From: Emiliania huxleyi CCMP1516
Lineage: Eukaryota
NCBI RefSeq assembly: GCF_000372725.1
Contig: NW_005202176.1
Span: 380,188 to 444,187, forward strand
Direction of reading: 5' to 3'
DNA: 64,000 bases
The position numbers and the translations under genes were made by a program. How positions within the stretch are numbered: the stretch's first letter is position 1; each line of letters starts with the position of its first letter. Below the pieces are notes generated by a model. It saw nothing but the letters and a program-made list of their open reading frames with translations, was not told where the DNA came from and did no database searches. This document shows positions 7,068-56,600 of this stretch, piece after piece.

Positions 7068-7557
7068 TTCTCTGGTAGGACGGGAACGAGATGATAGTAG
7101 GGAGTAGAAGAAAGCAAAGAGGAGCCCTGCGCACGCACGACTCCGCGCAGGAGAAACCCCTCCCCAGACAAAACACAAGGGAGAGGTGGGTGGGTCACAG
7201 AAAACTGCGGCCGCCAGCGACTGAGCGTCTCGCTGGCGGACGGGGAGAGAGGAACACAAAGGGACGTCCAGACGTCCATCCACTGGGATGAGAATACTGG
7301 AGATCTGAGGTCGAATCTGCCGATTCCACAGCCGCCCACAGGAGCGCCGCCTCAACACGGGGTCTCGGCTCTATCGAGCCATGCTAGCTCCAGCCGCAGC
7401 CCCACCCGGCCGCCCGAGGGTGTTCCCGCAGGCAGAGAAGACCAATCCTGGAGGAAGCAACCTTCTCTGGTAGGACGGGAACGAGATGATAGTAGGGAGT
7501 AGAAGAAAGCAAAGAGGAGCCCTGCGCACGCACGACTCCGCAGGAGAAACCCCTCCC
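7068..7557. repeat. ~95-bp direct repeats (7068-7164 and 7463-7557)
   Basis: TTCTCTGGTAGGACGGGAACGAGATGATAGTAGGGAGTAGAAGAAAGC...GGAGAAACCCCTCCC occurs twice. Confidence 0.85.
7216..7457. repeat. Copy 1 of a ~240-bp direct repeat (copy 2 at 11114-11377)
   Basis: Near-identical from AGCGACTGAGCGTCTCGC to CCAATCCTGGAGGAAG. Confidence 0.9.
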
Positions 7558-7760
7558 GCCCGTGCTTTTGCGCAGCGCAGCCTCCTCCTCCCTACGCGCA
7601 AGCTGGGCATGAGGATGATGGCGATTATGTCATGGCGTTGACGATCGCCAATACAGCCGTGATGCAAACGCAGATGAGGACGAACAGATGCCGATGGTGA
7701 TAAGAGGTTCCCACCCTTGAGAGACGCGCTGAGTTGCCTCGCCGCGCCGCTGTTGATGAC

Positions 7761-8031
7761 GGTACCTCGCGCGTCCGCTATGCGGTGCCGCGAGCTTCCG
7801 CTTGTGTATGGAAACCGATGGTGCCTCGCGCGTCCGCTATGCGGTGCCGCGAGCGTCCGTCTGTCTCCAGCGAGGATGGTACCTCACGCGTCCGCTGCGC
7901 GGTGCCGTGAGCCTCCTTCCGTCGCCTGTTGCTGGGCGGTGCCTCGCGCGTCCGCTGTGCGGTGCCGCGAGCGTCCGACACCAGCAACTACGGTACCTCG
8001 CGCGTCCGCTATGCGGTGCCGCGAGCTTCCG
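7761..8031. repeat. Array of five 40-bp hairpin-forming repeats with unique 14-20-nt spacers
   Basis: Consensus GGTRCCTCGCGCGTCCGCTRYGCGGTGCCGCGAGCBTCCG at 7761, 7820, 7878, 7938 and 7992. Confidence 0.9.
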
Positions 8032-8895
8032 ATGTGATTGACACGCTGCCGGGCTGTGTAGCCGCCACCCGACCGCCGCGTGACGATGGTGCCTCCAGAC
8101 ACGAGAGCTCTTTAGATTTGTGCACGCCCCCGTTACCCCGTATCCGGTGAATAGCCGCGGGGGCGTTCAATGCGTGAGCATGTCCAGTTCCCAATTGAGC
8201 TTCCTACGACGCTCCAGCTCCGGCTTGTCCGGCTTGCCCAGCTCCCGCTTGCGCCGTCGGTACTCGCGGTTTCGCCGCCGGCGCTCCTTGCGCTGCGCCT
8301 CGCTCATGCGCATCTGCTTCACACTTCGGCGGAAGACCTCCACGGGGTGCTGATGAGCGGCGCCGTCACGCTGTGGACCCTGGGCGCGATCCACCTCGCC
8401 GGCCTCGTCACCTTCCTGAGCTGATCTGCGGCTCCGTGTATCACATCGCCGAGGACCTCGAGCTCTAGGGCTCTATCTAGCTCGGCTTAGTAGCCGAGGC
8501 CGGGCCCGCCGGCGCCGTCGGACTCAGAATCTGCGTGCATGCATGGCGCCAGGGCGAGGAGCCGGCCCTGGCCACGGCATGCAGCCTTTATTAATAAATT
8601 GAGCATGCATGCAGCGCTCGCTGTATGCCAGGCCGGCCGGCTAAGACAAAGTACTTTACAAATCAATGCATATGTCAAATAGATTAGTTACAATCATATT
8701 AATTATTCGTACACGAGCTGGCAGCTCACCTTATTTGCATGCACGAATGGCGGCCGGGCCTCTTAGTCTAGCTCAGGCCTCAGGGACACGCGCCAGCATG
8801 CAGATCGGGCCGCGCACGTCACTGGCCTCGCAGGAGATGATGGGGTGGACCCGCGTGCGAAGCCCAGTGCCTGGCGGCTGCGCGCATGGAAAGGT

Positions 8896-10050
8896 TCACG
8901 GTAGAAATTTGGGATTGTCCATCAGAATGGCATTGGGATGGTCGCGACCGAGCGAGGTGAGCAAAACGCGGCTGCTCGAGACCCTCATGGGCATGCGACC
9001 GTGTGCGGTCAGGAGGTTGTCGAGCACGAGCACGTCGCCTGCCTCCAGAGTGAGAGCGACCGAGTTCTTGTAGACGAGCGCGCGCACGTGCGCGAGGGCC
9101 TCCTCACTCAACGGCGAGCCGTTGCCGTACGTCACGTGCACCGGCAGCTGTTCCAAGTCGCTGGGGGAGGGGTAGGGTGTCGCGGCGAGGAAGGCAGGAT
9201 GCGACGAGTGGTAAGAGTTGTGGTGAGCGTGAGCCTGAGCAAACATGATGTCCTCTCCCGTCACGGGGTGGGGGCGCATGACCTCGTCGACGGTCTGCCA
9301 CATGCGCAGCGAGTCGCCCTGCAGCCACTCGAACCCGTAGCCGTTCGCCGTCAGCCACTGCTCCGCCTCCTCGCGCGTGTCGCCAAGGAAGTCCTGCCAA
9401 GACGGCCGGTTGCCCCCAAATAGCATGGGCGAGGTCACCTTGCCCCGCGGCCATCCGAGCTTGGCATGCTCCGGGTCTTGCGTCCTGTTCTGAAGCACTC
9501 GAATGTAGGTGAGGCCGAGCTTTTGGATGCCACTCAGAAGTGCGGCGTCGAGCTGCTGCGTCACGTTGCGCATATCGGCCAACAGCGTCTCGCCGCCGTC
9601 CTGCGCGCCTCCCGCACGCGCGCAGAAGAAGTTGATGGTGCTCGGGTGCTGCTCGCGCCGATACGCTAGCTCCTGGTGGGGCTCCACAATCATCGCCGCC
9701 GCGAGGTCGGACGCTTCGGCGGCGAGCGCGCCCACCATGGAGCGCGTCGTCGTGCCGAGGTGGTACGGGAAGAGCCGATGGCCCATCGCCTCCAAGAAGG
9801 CCTCAAAGTCGTTGGCGTCGCTCAGCGGTGCCCCACGGATGAGCACCACGCCCACCTCGTGCAGGCGGGAGCCGATGACGGCGAGGGCTTCCTTCGCGTA
9901 ATCCTCGATGCTCGCGTTGCTGTCCGGGCGCGCGCGCAGCAGCAGAGGGAACGTGCCGTCGGCTCCGGTACCACCAGCGGCATCGAGTCCCTGTTGCCGC
10001 CAGGCACGAATGGCTGGCCCCGAAGCCTGGTGGGCGCGGTGACAGGGGCA
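8896..10050 (-). CDS. TauD/TfdA-family Fe(II)/2-oxoglutarate dioxygenase domain; probably the 3' exon of the gene starting at 11108
   Basis: GVVLIRG, HQE facial-triad motif (VEPHQELAY), FFC...GGETLLAD, and GDVLVLDNLLTAHGR. The frame is open upstream of the called GTG to ~10058 (GTFPLLLRA...). Confidence 0.85.
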   Translation of the reverse strand, partial: CPCHRAHQASGPAIRAWRQQGLDAAGGTGADGTFPLLLRARPDSNASIEDYAKEALAVIGSRLHEVGVVLIRGAPLSDANDFEAFLEAMGHRLFPYHLGTTTRSMVGALAAEASDLAAAMIVEPHQELAYRREQHPSTINFFCARAGGAQDGGETLLADMRNVTQQLDAALLSGIQKLGLTYIRVLQNRTQDPEHAKLGWPRGKVTSPMLFGGNRPSWQDFLGDTREEAEQWLTANGYGFEWLQGDSLRMWQTVDEVMRPHPVTGEDIMFAQAHAHHNSYHSSHPAFLAATPYPSPSDLEQLPVHVTYGNGSPLSEEALAHVRALVYKNSVALTLEAGDVLVLDNLLTAHGRMPMRVSSSRVLLTSLGRDHPNAILMDNPKFLP

Positions 10051-10059
10051 CAGCCCCGC

Positions 10060-11108
10060 TCATCGTGCTCCAGGAGGAGCGACGCATTCTCCCTGCGGTA
10101 GCGAGAGAGCTCGTCGTGGAACTGCTGCAGGGCGGCACCGCCCGCGCGCTCCGCCATGATGCGGTGGGCCTCGTGGAAGCGGTCGCGCAGGAACGAAGTG
10201 TCGAGGTCGCCATTGTTTGCCTGCCGGAACAAGTGCGACAGCTGCAGCGCGCAGTAATCGGTGTACTGTTGCGCGGTCATCGTCCAGCGCTCCTCCCCCG
10301 TCAGGCGGAAGGGTCCGTCCTGCGGCCAGATGCCTGGCACGGGTTTCCCCAGGGCGGTGGTGCGTCCGGAAAAGTGGTGGAGCGGCGCCTTGTGCTTGAG
10401 GTCCTTGTTGGCGAGAAGCATCTCAAACCACGTGGCCTTGTCCATCGCGCACGTCCAGTACACGAGCTGCTCGGCGCGCTCACCGATGAGCTCGCGCAGC
10501 TCATCGCGCCTGGAGATCGGAAACTGCGAAGCCTGATAGCCCACGGTGCCGTAGATGCTGTGAAAGAGGCCTGCGAGGCAGACGTCGTCGTCGATGTTGT
10601 CGCCGAGGTGCTGCCACTCGCGCAGGCAGTGTTCGTTGCCCAGCAGATGGTCAAAGAAGTGGCCGCTGTCGAGCTCGCCCTCGCCGCGCAGCAGTTGCCC
10701 ATTGGTGACGCTGGTGTAGTTGGGCGCTCGCTGGCTGCCGTGCGGGATCATCTTGGTACCGATGGACTCGAGAAAGCCGTACGCGTCCTCCCCGGCATGC
10801 CTCAGCTGGCTGTCGACGAGGCCAAAGTGCAATAGCCTGTCGTCGAAGGACGCTGCGACCCTGCGTCCATCGCCATCGTACTGCCGCCTCTTGGCCAGCT
10901 CGATGTACTCAGGCTGCTGCTCGGGCATGTTGGCGCGGCTCTCATGATAGGTGCCGTAGAAGCGGTTGCTTGCAAGCTGCTGAAGCTCCTCCCACGGGGT
11001 CGTGCTCGCGCCCAGGAGGCCGTCGCCACACTCGTGGCTCGCTTTGGCAAAGGTCACGGACACGAGAGCGCACGCGACCACGAGTTTCTTTGCGGCATCG
11101 CGCATCAT
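10060..11108 (-). CDS. Signal-peptide protein with DUF6817-like (HD-related) domain; probably the 5' part of a fusion with TauD
   Basis: N-terminal KKLVVACALVSVTFAKA hydrophobic leader. HLLG...W...DVCLAGLFHSIYGT...RRDELRELIGERAEQLVY is the pattern I associate with DUF6817. Confidence 0.65.
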
Positions 11109-11113
11109 GACTT

Positions 11114-11377
11114 AGCGACTGAGCGTCTCGCTGGCGGACGGGGAGAGAGGAACACAAAGGGACGTCCGGACGTCCATCGGATGGACCATGTTGGTCCATC
11201 CACTGGGATGAGAATACTGGAGATCTGAGGTCGAATCTGCCGATTCCACAGCCGCCCACAGGAGCGCCGCCTCAACACGGGGTCTCGGCTCTATCGAGCC
11301 ATGCTAGCTCCAGCCGCAGCCCCACCCGGCCGCCCGAGGGTGTTCCCGCAGGCAGAGAAGACCAATCCTGGAGGAAG
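11114..11377. repeat. Copy 2 of the ~240-bp direct repeat, with a 22-nt palindromic insertion
   Basis: Matches 7216-7457, plus an extra GGATGGACCA-TGT-TGGTCCATCC hairpin near 11179-11201. Confidence 0.9.
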
Positions 11378-11656
11378 TAACCGCGCGTGCAAAAGAGCCT
11401 GAAAACAACGAAGCACCTCCCGAGCGAGACCTGAGATATCAGATGATGGACACGGGCTATCGCATCTTCACCACTATCCACTCGCTCAGCAGAGAGCAGT
11501 CGCACTCGGAGCGTCCTCACTCCTCTCGCTTGCGAGCGGGGGGGGCGCCGTGGTCCGGCAGGTCCACAACCGACACGAGTGCACACGCTGGAGCTCGGAC
11601 ACAAGTGCACGTGGCCCGCATGTTTGTGCCCGATCGCGCGACTCCCTGCCCGCCCC

Positions 11657-14128: not shown

Positions 14129-14855
14129 GAAGATCCTACTATAGGATTCTCCCCAAACCTTGCTCAGCTGATCCAGCACGGGTCGTAGGCCAGGCCTGGG
14201 CAAAGAAACCAGTACCTCATCAGGCTTCCCTGAGCGTCACAGCTCGGTGATCGTGCCGGCCGGACACCACTGTAACGTCCGTTCCGGGCATTTGAACGCG
14301 ACCCTCGAGGGCAAAGACATGGGCTCTATGGCTCAGATTGGACTCCTCTTGGTCCCTTCTGATGCCCTAGGCCACACCTGGGCCTTACCTGGGGCTCTAG
14401 GGGGTGGGCAGGGTTTGCCCCCCGAAACTGGCCAGGAGGACCTTAACTGCAGAACGCCGCCCCTCTACTCGGAGCTAGTGATACGAGAATACGCACCACG
14501 CCCACGCAATACTACTCGACGATAATACAAGAATACGCAGCTTGCAGACGCCTATAAAGAAACAGCGAGGTAAAGTTCGGCGGCTACGATAAACCGAAAG
14601 TTGTCGTAAAACGCGGGCAAAAGCAAAGCAGAGGGGAGAGGGGGGACGAGCACTGCTTCGCCTTCGGCAGCGTGCACCTCGATCCTGTACCGTGTTTGTT
14701 ATGACCCCCCCCAATGAACATACCAGTGAGGGAGGGCGAGACGATCGAGGGGTCCCGTACCATGCGGAATCGACCCTATCCAGTGCTCAAGTGCTCAAGC
14801 AGAGGGCGGGCGCTTTTGCCGCAGCGATAACCGCCGCCGCTGAACCTTCTTTCTA

Positions 14856-15368
14856 GACGGCTAGGATTGAGAGCAGCCTCGCTCTCAATCCGAGAAGTCG
14901 AAGGATTGTGAGCAGCACTCCTCGCAATCGTAGCATCTCTGTGCGATTGTGAGCGCCTACGCTCGCAATCCTACATCTTCTAGGACTAAGAGCAGCTCCG
15001 CTCCCAAGGTGACTGGTGACGCCTACGACTACTACCAGCGCGCTCGCAATCCGAGCAAAGTCTAGGGTTGCGAGCAGCACTGCTCACAATCCTAGCAACA
15101 TGCCTCCGATTGCGAGCAGTAGCGCTCGCAATCCTACATCTTGTATGTAGGACTATGAGCGGCTCCGCTCACAATCGTACCAAAGATCCTCACAATCCAA
15201 ACAGTGATCCCACCGATTGCGAGGGGACCCGCTCGCAATCCTAGAAGATGTAGGATTGCGAGCGTAGGCGCTCACAATCGCACAGAGATGCTACGATTGC
15301 GAGGAGTGCTGCTCACAATCCTTCGACTTCTAGGATTGAGAGCGAGGCTGCTCTCAATCCTAGCCGTC
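14856..15368. mobile_element. MITE/foldback element with ~130-bp TIRs, probable TA target-site duplication
   Basis: GACGGCTAGGATTGAGAGC... pairs with ...GCTCTCAATCCTAGCCGTC, and TA lies on both sides. The interior is built from GATTGYGAGC/GCTCRCAATC subrepeats. Confidence 0.85.
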
Positions 15369-15985
15369 TAGAAAAGCAGGTTCACCCCCGCAGCCTGTCG
15401 AGCAACTTCCGCGGCGCCCATGCGCCGCCGGCCATCATCATGCGCGTAAAGAAAGGTGCAAAGTAACGGCCGCGTTGCGAGAAGTTTCTGATAGCAATCA
15501 GGGTCCGCACGCGACCTTTCGTTGTTGGCGCGTCTACAATCGGGGCAGTCCGGAGGGGAACGCGGATGTCGCGGCCTCCGCCACGGGCGCGCCGCGGCTC
15601 GCATGTCCAAGGATTGTCACAGGAGGACGAGCGCACCTCCGCTCCACCAGCAATGCGCCGCCCGAAGCCACGCAGGCTTTCCAAGGATGACATAGTTGCC
15701 GGCGTGCGCGGCATCATGGGCTTGGCGCTTGGCGGGGGCGCGCGGGCGCGCCCCCAGCTCCGCACAGCAGCCAGCACGAGATGACTGTCGCGTGTCGGAC
15801 GACGGACGGCGTTCCAAGACATGCGCTCGAGCACATGCGCTTTTGGCCGGTGGCCCTTTTGGACAAAAAAACCTAGCCGTCGCGGCTAGGACCGCGCATG
15901 CAGGCGCGCACGGTGACACGTGGCGTGACGTGGCGTACACCGAGTGAGAGAAGTAGAGTGATGAGGTTGCACGTGGAAGCGCATC

Positions 15986-53600: not shown

Positions 53601-56600
53601 CGTGGCTGTCCCGCGAGCGAGCGCCGCAAGCCCGCACCAGCCACAGAGGCACTTGGAGAGAGCCACCCGCCAGCTGTGAGCGCACCACGCCCAGCGCCGC
53701 CTCAAGCGCCCCGACCGGCTCGGCTGCCGCGCTCGTGCCCGCGATGCCACTGGGCGCCAACACCAAAGAGTCCGTCTGCCGCCCGCCGGTGACCTCGGCC
53801 GCCGGCCAGCGCCGCAGCCGCGGCCGGCACCTCCCGAGCACCAGCGCGCCACCGTCAGCGCCGCCAGCAGAGATAGGGAGAGCCGCCCCACCGGCCGGCC
53901 GCCACGCCGTAGTGTACAAATGCCGCTCGCGATCCGACGCAGCCGACTCCGCAATCGCGCGGCTCTCAAAGCCGCTCAGCCGCACCGCTGGCGCGCTGCC
54001 ACACGCCGCGCCCGCGAGCCAGACGCTGACCAAGCTCCCGCTCTCCCGAGCAGCGACCGACCAGAGCCGCCCCGAGGCCTGTTGCAGAGCGGCTGCGCCC
54101 ACGGCGAACGGCAGCCGAGTGCAGCCGGGGCGGGTCTCGGAGACCAGCTGCGTGAGCTGCAACGCGCCGTCCAGGTCGGCCGGGTGCAGCTGCGTGCCAG
54201 ACAGCCTGGAGCGCTTGTGCAGCCGTGCCGTCGCTGCGCCGGCCGTGGACAAGCGCGCCGCAGCGAGCGTGCGGTACTCCGGGCCGTACTCAAGCCGCAT
54301 CGAGCGCGAGTGGGCGTAAAGCCGGCCGACACCCGCCGCGCATGTGCAAGCGCTGGCGACGGACGGCAGGTCGAGCGGCGCGCTCGGCGACGCGAGCGGA
54401 CACGACGCGCCGGCGCAGTGCGCCGTGTGATCTGTCGGCTCCTCGCCGACGCCGCTGATCTCGAACCGGCCTGCGGCCGTGTCGACCTCACAGCTCACGC
54501 GCGCCGCCGAGCCGTCGAGCACGAGCGGCTTCAGAAAGAAGACGCGCCGCAGCGCAGCGCCTGCTGACGGCACGCTGCCGTGGGCGGCTGCGCTGGCCGC
54601 CCGCGCCATCTCCAGATATGCCGCCGCGGGAAAGACGACCTGGCCGTCGACGATGTGGTCGGAGACCAACGCCGCCAGCCGACCGACCGCCGGGCTCCAC
54701 GCAGTCGTCAAGCTGCCGGCGCTCGACACGTGGGCGCGCAGCGGGTGGCAGCCCGCCCACGGCTCGAAGCGACGGCGCTGCATCACAAGCGGCACGGCGC
54801 CCGACCGAAGCCGAGGACCCGACGTCCGCCGCTCGGCGTCGACCACACACGACGCGATCGTCCCGCTGTAGCCGAAGGAGCTCACCGCCCCTGTCGCCGC
54901 CGCGCCACCGCCCACCTGGAGGAAAGGCGAGTGCTGCGACGGGAGCGACGCGGTCGGCGCGCCCTCAAAGACCGCCGCAATGTGCGGGTTGACCGTGCGT
55001 AGCTGCGCGTTCGGCGACGCGACGCCGCCGCCAAGACCGACGGCCAGCCGCAGCAGCCCGGAGCCGCCCGCCGCCGGCTCGCCGTGGCCGGCGTTGGCCT
55101 TGACGCTCCCGGTGGGCAACGCGCACTCGTCGCCGAGGTACGTCAGCACCGCCGCGGCGAGCGAGCGCATCTCGATCGGGTCGCCCAGCGCCGTGCCCGT
55201 GCCGTGCGCCTCCCACATCGACAGGTCCTCGCACGGCAGGGCCGCGTCCACCAGAGTCGCGTCGAGCAGCGCGTGCTGGGCTCGCCCGTTCGGCGCGGTC
55301 AGGCTCGCGCTCTTCCCGTCCTGCCGCACGCAGCCGCCTCGCACCGCGAGCGTGCACGCCTCCACGCCCGTCGTGCGCAGCGTGAGCGCGCAGCACGCCT
55401 CGCCGCGCGCGTAGCCGTCGGCCCGAGCGTCGAAGGTGTGGCACCGGCCGCGCGCTGACAGCATGCCAGCCACAGCGAAGCTCGTGCCCAAGTTCGGCAG
55501 CAGCATCAAGCTGACGCCCGCTACGAGGCTGCCGATGCTCTCGCGCAGCTGCGTCGCCCGCAAGCCGGCGTGGCACGCCACCAGCGCGGCGGAGCACGCC
55601 GTGTCGTACGAGACGCACGGGCCCTGCAGGCCGAGCACGTAGGAAAGCCGGCCTGAAGCGATCGAGTGCGCGCTCCCCGTCGCGGCGTACACGCTCCCGC
55701 CCGCCGGCGACGCGTTCATCAGCAAATTGAAGTCCACGCTCGCGATCGCCACAAAGACGCCGAACGCCGTGTCCGCCAGGGCCGCCCGCTCGAGGCCTGC
55801 GCCACGCAGCGACTCGTAGCCCCGCTCGAGCAGCAACCGCTGCTGCGGGTCCATCGACTGCGCCTCGGCGCTCGACACGCCGAAACGCGCGTGGTCAAAC
55901 AGCTCCGCGCCGTGGACAAACGCGCCGTGCCGCACGCGCCTCGCCACCTCGCCGTCGGAGGGGCTCGGCGCCTCAAGCGTCCAACGCTCGACGGGCACCT
56001 CCGACACGAGGTTGGCGGCGCACGCCCCAACGCGGCTCAGCGACGCCGCAGATGCGACACCCGACGGCAGCACCATCTGCAGCCCGCCCGCGCGCACCGA
56101 GTCGCGTGAGAAGCGAGAGGCCTCCACGCTACCGCCGACCGCCGACCGACGAGACGCCGCCGCCGCCGTCGCCTCGCCGCCGAGAGCAGCCGAGGCAAAG
56201 AAGGCAGCGAGCTGGCGCGCCGTCGGGTGGTCGAAAACCAGTGTGCTTGGCAGAGAGAGCGAGTCGCCCGCCGCGGCATGCAGCTGGTTGCGCAGCTCGA
56301 CGGCGCCGAGCGAGTCGACGCCCGCGTCCATCAGCGGCACGTCCGCGTCGAGCCCGCCTCCCGCGATTTGGCGAGCGATCTCCAGGACAAGGTCGAGGTC
56401 AACCGTGCTCTTGCCTGCAGACCCGCCGGCAGCGACGGCGGCCTTCGGCGCGGCGGAGCCACCCGAGGCCGCCAGCGACGACAGCAGCGGTGGCGTCGTG
56501 CCCATCGTCCGCACAAGCCGACGCCAGTCGACCACCAACAAGGCCAAGACTGGAGGCGCCTGCGGCACCGCGGCAGCCGCCAGTGCCGCCCGGCCCTGAG

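Follow-up and report, generated by a model that had tools for sequence, protein, structure and literature searches.

The repeat array in the first part of the window (the whole 64,000-nt stretch of Emiliania huxleyi CCMP1516 DNA analyzed here) is a real cis-acting structure of a retroelement. There is good support for placing the array in the 3′ part of a 5′-truncated, minus-strand copy of a haptophyte tyrosine-recombinase (YR) retrotransposon, and the structure is likely to act in the sense RNA, which corresponds to the minus strand. Judged by its sequence, the array-bearing element is a Gag-only form, a near-complete copy of which encodes ORF1 alone. We assume, with a probability of about 55% and by analogy, that the ten purine-rich internal loops of the array could serve as a multivalent RNA site for the arginine-rich C-terminus of the element's own ORF1 protein.

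Structure of the Hairpin Array

The five copies of the repeat start at positions 7761, 7820, 7878, 7938, and 7992, and the repeat is absent from the rest of the window. The number of copies and their periods of 59, 58, 60, and 54 nt agree with the original prediction, whereas the conserved unit turned out to be 39 nt long rather than 40 bp. The predicted hairpin stem is present, but it carries two internal loops, and the outer one (GGTRCC/GCBTCC), which closes the stem as drawn earlier, had been missed. On the minus strand the loops read GGA-N-GC/GG-N-ACC, two per hairpin and ten in the five hairpins. The variable 3-nt apical loop and the paired stem change in copy 3, both of which had been reported, are indeed in the sequence. 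The earlier caution that the paired change may reflect CpG deamination appeared to be justified: there is a CpG-type transition on either side, each unit contains 7 CpGs, and a second random CpG hit falls on the pairing partner in about 1 case in 13. The copy-3 change is therefore weak evidence when taken alone. Sites that form G·U on one strand and A·C on the other favor the minus strand 4 to 1.

The sequences between the repeats had been described as unrelated spacers. This description does not hold, as halves of the linkers beside the 39-nt cores (20, 19, 21, and 15 nt) pair with one another and extend hairpins 2, 3, and 4. When the cores were kept fixed and the spacers together with 20-nt flanks were shuffled 300 times, none of the 300 shuffles folded as well as the native sequence, either on the minus strand (−148.7 vs. 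−128.0 ± 4.6 kcal/mol) or on the plus strand (−146.4 vs. −126.8 ± 4.7 kcal/mol). Compared with 200 dinucleotide shuffles, 7750–8040 folds better than every one of them on either strand, with z-scores of −6.6 (minus) and −4.0 (plus) that are inflated by the repeats. The spacer test and the constancy of the loop support the previous proposal of selection on a secondary structure. Likewise, the retroelement context and the recurrence of the loop favor two of the roles suggested at that time, a mobile-element cis signal or a protein-binding hairpin array, as far as these may be read from sequence.

Searches for a known RNA at this place were negative. None of the covariance models of 4227 Rfam families matches the array region at E ≤ 10, and ARAGORN reports nothing there. 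The repeat pattern has no match in IMG/VR; a looser pattern has one, a coding repeat judged to be a chance match, and none in two MAGs. A coding use of the array was rejected because the repeat periods do not keep to multiples of three. Readings as a SECIS element, an HDV-like ribozyme, or a loop-E motif were considered by eye against the consensus and do not fit.

Table 1. Positions in the window of the array, its linkers, and the repeats of the element
Feature	Position	Strand	Remarks
Hairpin array, five 39-nt units, 10 internal loops	7761–8030	−	Sense set by the L004 ORF
Linker S1; pairs in part with S2 (basal stem, hairpin 2)	7800–7819	−	
Linker S2; one half pairs with S1 in hairpin 2, the other with S3 in hairpin 3	7859–7877	−	
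Linker S3; one half pairs with S2 in hairpin 3, the other with S4 in hairpin 4 (8-bp stem)	7917–7937	−	
Linker S4; pairs with S3	7977–7991	−	
Part of the element between the break and the 5′ side of the array	8031–8104	−	L003/L004 match to 8104, then continue into the ORF1 3′ end
3′ internal region, from array to terminal repeats	7558–7760	−	Matches L004; ~97 nt of the region deleted in L003
Split direct repeat B1 (Ngaro notation)	7463–7557	−	98% identical to 7068–7164
Split direct repeat A2; as A1 precedes ORF1 in other copies	7195–7462	−	
30-nt linker between A2 and B2	7165–7194	−	
Split direct repeat B2, the element 3′ end	7068–7164	−	In other copies, differing flanks join at or near 7068
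Separate partial copy of repeat A	11114–11382	−	91% identical to 7216–7462

The Element Carrying the Array

Scanning metagenome contigs for the repeat pattern revealed five loci (L001–L005), of which L003 and L004 represent the same element as the window copy. The L004 array shows no differences from the window over 271 nt; that of L003 has one unit fewer (4) and one substitution. Within 3.8 kb, L004 holds part of repeat A, a 782-aa ORF1 on the minus strand with its stop ~230 nt ahead of the array, the array itself, and B-A-B, with no space for pol. Since L003 and L004 run past the point equivalent to 8104 into ORF1, the window contains the 3′ end of a 5′-truncated copy, and ORF1 is missing from it because the element sequence ends at 8104.

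In the sense orientation the layout is A1-ORF-B1A2B2, with split direct repeats, pieced together from contigs none of which has both outer ends in full. B1, A2, and B2 are present in the window and in L004, and A1 is only partial in L004. The position of repeat A ahead of ORF1 is indicated by a loose end at L004 3570 that reads into A and by the N-terminal extension of P0266, which translates repeat A. In L003, array-B-A is fused to the beginning of a further ORF1, and a Penelope-like tandem insertion was therefore considered as well; it was set aside because the relatives carry YR and the repeats fit A1-B1A2B2. The summed contig depth of the terminal repeat is ~100 times that of the ORF core, a ratio that is not a copy number. 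RNA-library contigs cover the array or most of it in all four runs (four studies), with no other letters listed within it, and none of them covers 8374–8900; such contigs carry no strand, and the libraries may hold DNA.

Two neighboring stretches deserve mention. A DUF6817 ORF (9822–11111, minus) has its ATG a few bases from the repeat A copy at 11114–11382, which may act as a promoter or 5′ UTR for it; a TauD ORF (8896–10059, minus) comes after the DUF6817 ORF. The sequence that abuts the element break (8105–8800), with an arginine-rich minus-strand frame at 8167–8472 and a palindrome-rich stretch, is possibly another mobile element.

ORF1 and Its Pol-Bearing Relatives

The ORF1 of the array-bearing element has no Pfam match. 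The cluster of the L004 ORF1 includes proteins named from Emiliania huxleyi CCMP1516, and 290 relatives were found at E ≤ 0.001 among 50% identity clusters. One relative, P0038 (2673 aa), runs on into a region related to proteins that have the motifs of RT, RNase H, and YR in a single frame. HMM matches to ORF1 were obtained in L008 and L009. In L008 the ORF1 homologue lies directly upstream of an RT-RH ORF (23% over 586 aa, E 7e-20), and L009 likewise has one just upstream of the pol ORF. ORF1 thus stands in the Gag position, and this position together with the zinc-type tail of the relatives would fit a Gag-like protein; a putative capsid role is read from the position only.

In L006 and L007 the motifs of RT, RNase H, and YR follow one another in a single frame, in the order given. 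Among 28 pol proteins, Pfam finds Phage_integrase in 19, all below the curated cut-off, and calls RVT_1 on none; the pol relatives fall in Atlas RVT_1 clusters at 0.96–0.97. PAT-like elements are marked by a methyltransferase domain placed after RT-RH. P0038 has a methyltransferase-like stretch upstream of the RT start (phrog_757, E 2.5e-4), and the Pfam scans of the 28 pol proteins show no methyltransferase domain. Accessory domains precede RT in the autonomous relatives P0038, P0246, and P0193: methyltransferase-like (phrog_757), DUF4326, and NADAR, with OTU-like and NUDIX-like stretches seen by eye. L006–L009, L015, and L016 are retroelement contigs filed within bacterial MAGs, probably as eukaryotic contamination; L008 and L009 are read in this way because their named relatives come from Prymnesium.

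ORF1 has no sequence match in the PDB, and its confident models (the whole protein and the C-terminal core) have no match to a known fold. Atlas matches of P0001 to the coat proteins of potyviruses and flexiviruses (0.85) are no more than a lead, to which fold searches gave no support. Relatives of P0001, P0038, or repeat A2 were not found in viral contigs.

A Second Array-Bearing Family with the Same Loop

L001, L002, and L005 belong to one other element, which is also without pol and whose ORF1 is 24% identical to that of the first family. Its 3′ region has up to three hairpins, one of them missing in L002. Because the hairpin pattern was used to find L005, the match of one of its hairpins is due to selection; in the remaining two the loop is retained, although the stems are different, a pair has been added, and the apex carries long insertions. 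The sense-strand loop GGA-N-GC/GG-N-ACC is kept in 15 of 15 cases (10 in the window, 5 in L005), whereas the stems, the apical loops, and the middle position vary. The bases that face each other in the loop are, in order, G-C, G-C, A·A, N·N, G·G, and C-G, the middle N·N being C·C in 10 loops, A-U in 3, G·U in 1, and C·A in 1. When the 3′ regions of the two families are compared as DNA, only the 39-nt hairpin matches strongly; no other shared stretch exceeds 15 nt. The loop is absent from six partial loci that represent autonomous relatives and total 38.5 kb (2.05 expected from shuffles); these loci come from other species and mostly lack 3′ ends. Family 2 also has a second motif, approximately GGTGAYGGC..WAAA.TACC in the sense orientation, with ~10 copies at L005 3080–3440 and 1860–1900.

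The Arginine-Rich C-Terminal Motif

In both array-bearing families ORF1 ends in RKRRH-x-x-RR-x-RQR and has neither the zinc domain nor the CCCH finger of its relatives. A tree set of 43 relatives (19 near-duplicates having been dropped) shows how these ends are distributed: 26 have a zinc-type CW..C..H domain, 3 a CCCH finger, and 12 have none or are truncated, while the arginine-rich motif occurs in 2, which are exactly the two array-bearing families. The CCCH finger stands in place of the zinc-type domain in a third ORF1 group (P0039, P0044, and P0115, on 2–4 kb contigs), perhaps another module swap in Gag-only elements.

The motif matches between the families at 11 of 17 residues, and 7 of these 11 are encoded by different codons, which points to selection on the arginine-rich peptide. 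In family 1 the motif is present in all 13 of the 15 listed cluster members that reach the C-terminus. In family 2 it is found in 22 of 30 listed members, the rest being truncated or internally deleted; the deletions in P0291 and P0292 take out the motif. Members of a cluster are near-copies and not independent cases. Structure prediction places the motif in a lone helix (764–778) after a disordered linker, at low confidence (pLDDT about 54–63).

P0246, from the sister subfamily of family 1, is 70% identical over residues 15–733 and keeps the zinc domain; the ORF1 of this subfamily has 1617 aa and lies on a 10.6-kb contig. In quick trees the motif lineages are not sisters, and a single clade was rejected with p-AU of 0.008, a test made on 22 of the 43 rows, in which the group was designated once the first tree was known and P0008 forms a long branch. 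At sequence level, it seems that the motif and the array passed from lineage to lineage together, as a single cassette. The simplest history would be that the C-terminal peptide and the RNA array replaced the zinc domain and pol together. The co-occurrence of motif and array concerns two lineages of one species, and it is close to a single event because these lineages may share one donor cassette.

Proposed Recognition of the Array by ORF1

In the preferred reading, A·A and G·G pairs in the array loops would open the major groove, and the predicted helix R(K)RRH-x-x-RR-x-RQR would bind the opened groove, standing in for the lost zinc domain. In this way the element would single out its own RNA for packaging or for assembly into ribonucleoprotein, and possibly for nuclear export too. 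Pol would be borrowed from the autonomous sister subfamily with the same terminal repeats. A wider proposal, which we regard as tentative and somewhat doubtful, is that haptophyte Gag-only YR elements independently evolved a Rev/RRE-like cassette in place of the ORF1 zinc domain, a private RNA code for packaging or export that spread between distant ORF1 lineages parasitizing autonomous helpers.

The comparison with HIV-1 is one of analogy only, not of homology. According to the available parts of two papers, G47-A73, G48-G71, and the bulged U72 of RRE IIB widen the groove for the arginine-rich helix of Rev (PMC4488727), and one RRE IIB strand is GGUAC (PMC3154333). As far as these parts show, the second strand of the array loop is GGUAC as well when N is U (PMC3154333), and two purine–purine oppositions occupy the same places around a variable base (PMC4488727). 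Both systems have several sites on one RNA and a short arginine-rich helix, here putative sites and a predicted helix. The register RR[N/H]xxRRxRxR is also shared, although such registers are easily found in arginine-rich stretches. In contrast to RRE IIB, the array loop has A·A in place of G47-A73, a middle base on each of its two strands, and an extra base, and C takes the place of U in 10 of 15 loops. Furthermore, the motif ends a 780-aa ORF1, whereas Rev is a small export adaptor.

Alternative Explanations

The array could be read by another factor, such as a host RNA-binding protein or the helper Pol, or could act on stability or against silencing through its mismatch-broken helices, the motif being a nuclear localization signal carried in the same cassette. 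All the structural and element evidence fits such a scheme without direct binding, and basic patches occur in many ORF1 relatives. However, the motif occupies the place of the relatives' zinc-type domain and is kept residue by residue, H and Q included, between two distant lineages, and we consider this explanation rather unlikely. It is improbable that the hairpins serve YR or replication steps as sites of folded DNA, formed when the antisense cDNA (plus strand) is single-stranded: the array is internal and distant from the ends at which the flanks join, recombinase-encoding autonomous loci (partial contigs) did not show the loop, and the G·U sites lean to the minus strand. This is so despite the good folding of the plus strand, the resemblance of two oppositely oriented loops around a 6-bp stem to a dyad site, and the amplification of DIRS-1 via single-stranded, mostly linear cDNA, as described in the available part of PMC7192593.

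Tandem repeats are numerous in the window and in the elements, the number of units varies (4 in L003, and L002 is one hairpin short), and several stem changes are of the CpG type, all of which would agree with a neutral minisatellite in a transposon whose stems were perfected by template switching and CpG decay. Yet it is the mismatched loop and not the stems that is invariant (15 of 15), every hairpin has its own complementary basal stem, and the unit is kept across families with 24% identical proteins, which makes neutrality very improbable. The CRISPR-like framing under which the array was first described turned out to be misleading. Repeats and spacers do make it look like a precursor of guide RNAs or small RNAs (similar to a CRISPR array, a TIGR array, or a miRNA cluster) with spacers that direct a protein to targets, and contigs from RNA libraries cover it. 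The spacers are nevertheless structural: they pair mutually and are invariant between samples, identical in L004 over the whole 271 nt, and the two of the four that were scanned (S1 and S3) have no exact viral match in IMG/VR. There is no recognizable nuclease in the element, and the neighboring ORFs scanned are TauD and DUF6817. The suggestion of a polycistronic small-RNA precursor found no support either, with no Rfam match over the array and no match in 12 of the 19 supplements of an E. huxleyi small-RNA paper (PMC4839659), the other 7 of which could hold array small RNAs. A guide array is, in our opinion, barely credible. The reading in which ORF1 binds the loops through its own C-terminus is the one we prefer.

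Comparison with Known Elements

The split direct repeats and the ORF order of the relatives make the element Ngaro-like at sequence level. The split pattern is known from Ngaro, PAT, and VIPER elements, as stated in the available parts of PMC8547959 and PMC6681497. The same part of PMC8547959 describes Ngaros (order DIRS) of Cafeteria burkhardae that resemble the haptophyte elements in having the arrangement A1-[ORF]-B1A2B2, abundant short terminal-repeat pieces, and, like the autonomous relatives, an ORF1 in the Gag position followed by RT, RNase H, and YR. The array-bearing element is ORF1-only, whereas the Cafeteria deletion variants described there (PMC8547959) are instead without ORF1; that portion of the paper shows no hairpin array or arginine-rich motif in Cafeteria Ngaros. 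A further difference from Ngaro is that the haptophyte relatives have RT-RH-YR in one ORF and an ORF1 with accessory domains.

VIPER elements have YR before RT/RH, in contrast to L006 and L007, where YR comes after RT and RNase H. The repeat order, on the other hand, is the same as in VIPER/SIRE of Trypanosoma cruzi, for which the available part of PMC6681497 gives a table listing Gag-like, YR, and RT/RH proteins. As described there, SIRE consists of A2, ~30 bp, and B2 (PMC6681497), which matches 7462–7195, the 30-nt linker, and 7164–7068 in the window. CRISPR arrays share with the window array the palindromic repeats with short intervening sequences, but the spacers here are self-pairing and invariant and belong to a eukaryotic retroelement.

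To our knowledge, the way in which YR retrotransposons select their RNA has not been worked out. A search of the accessible literature gave no relevant paper on a packaging signal, an arginine-rich motif, or a Gag-only form in these elements. The element class itself is already known, because Ngaro repeats in the haptophyte Prymnesium parvum (bioRxiv 10.1101/2022.10.25.513657) and one unassigned DIRS1/PAT-like sequence in E. huxleyi (PMC3266345) are reported in the accessible parts of these sources. PMC13508280 does not contain the transposon terms that were looked for.

Other Features of the Window

A minus-strand frame of at least 11,443 aa (29671–63999), open at the window end, encodes a modular type I polyketide synthase with KS, DH, ER, KR, ACP, methyltransferase, and terminal thioesterase domains. 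Within the frame, stretches of 4.8 and ~9.1 kb are duplicated almost identically, and the tRNA-Val calls at 55323 and 60123 inside it are probably spurious. A fold-back MITE-like element at 14850–15380, with ~40-nt hairpin units and inverted ends, is unrelated to the array.

Conclusions

The present data outline a large family of haptophyte YR retrotransposons with 290 clusters at 50% identity and an ORF1 without a known fold match. The small size of the two proposed partners, a 39-nt RNA and a peptide of ~15 residues, allows a cheap and direct binding test. If the two do bind, the array and the motif would give Rev/RRE-style recognition a second natural example outside retroviruses. It would also mean that non-autonomous elements swap their RNA-binding modules, be it a zinc domain, a CCCH finger, or an arginine-rich helix.
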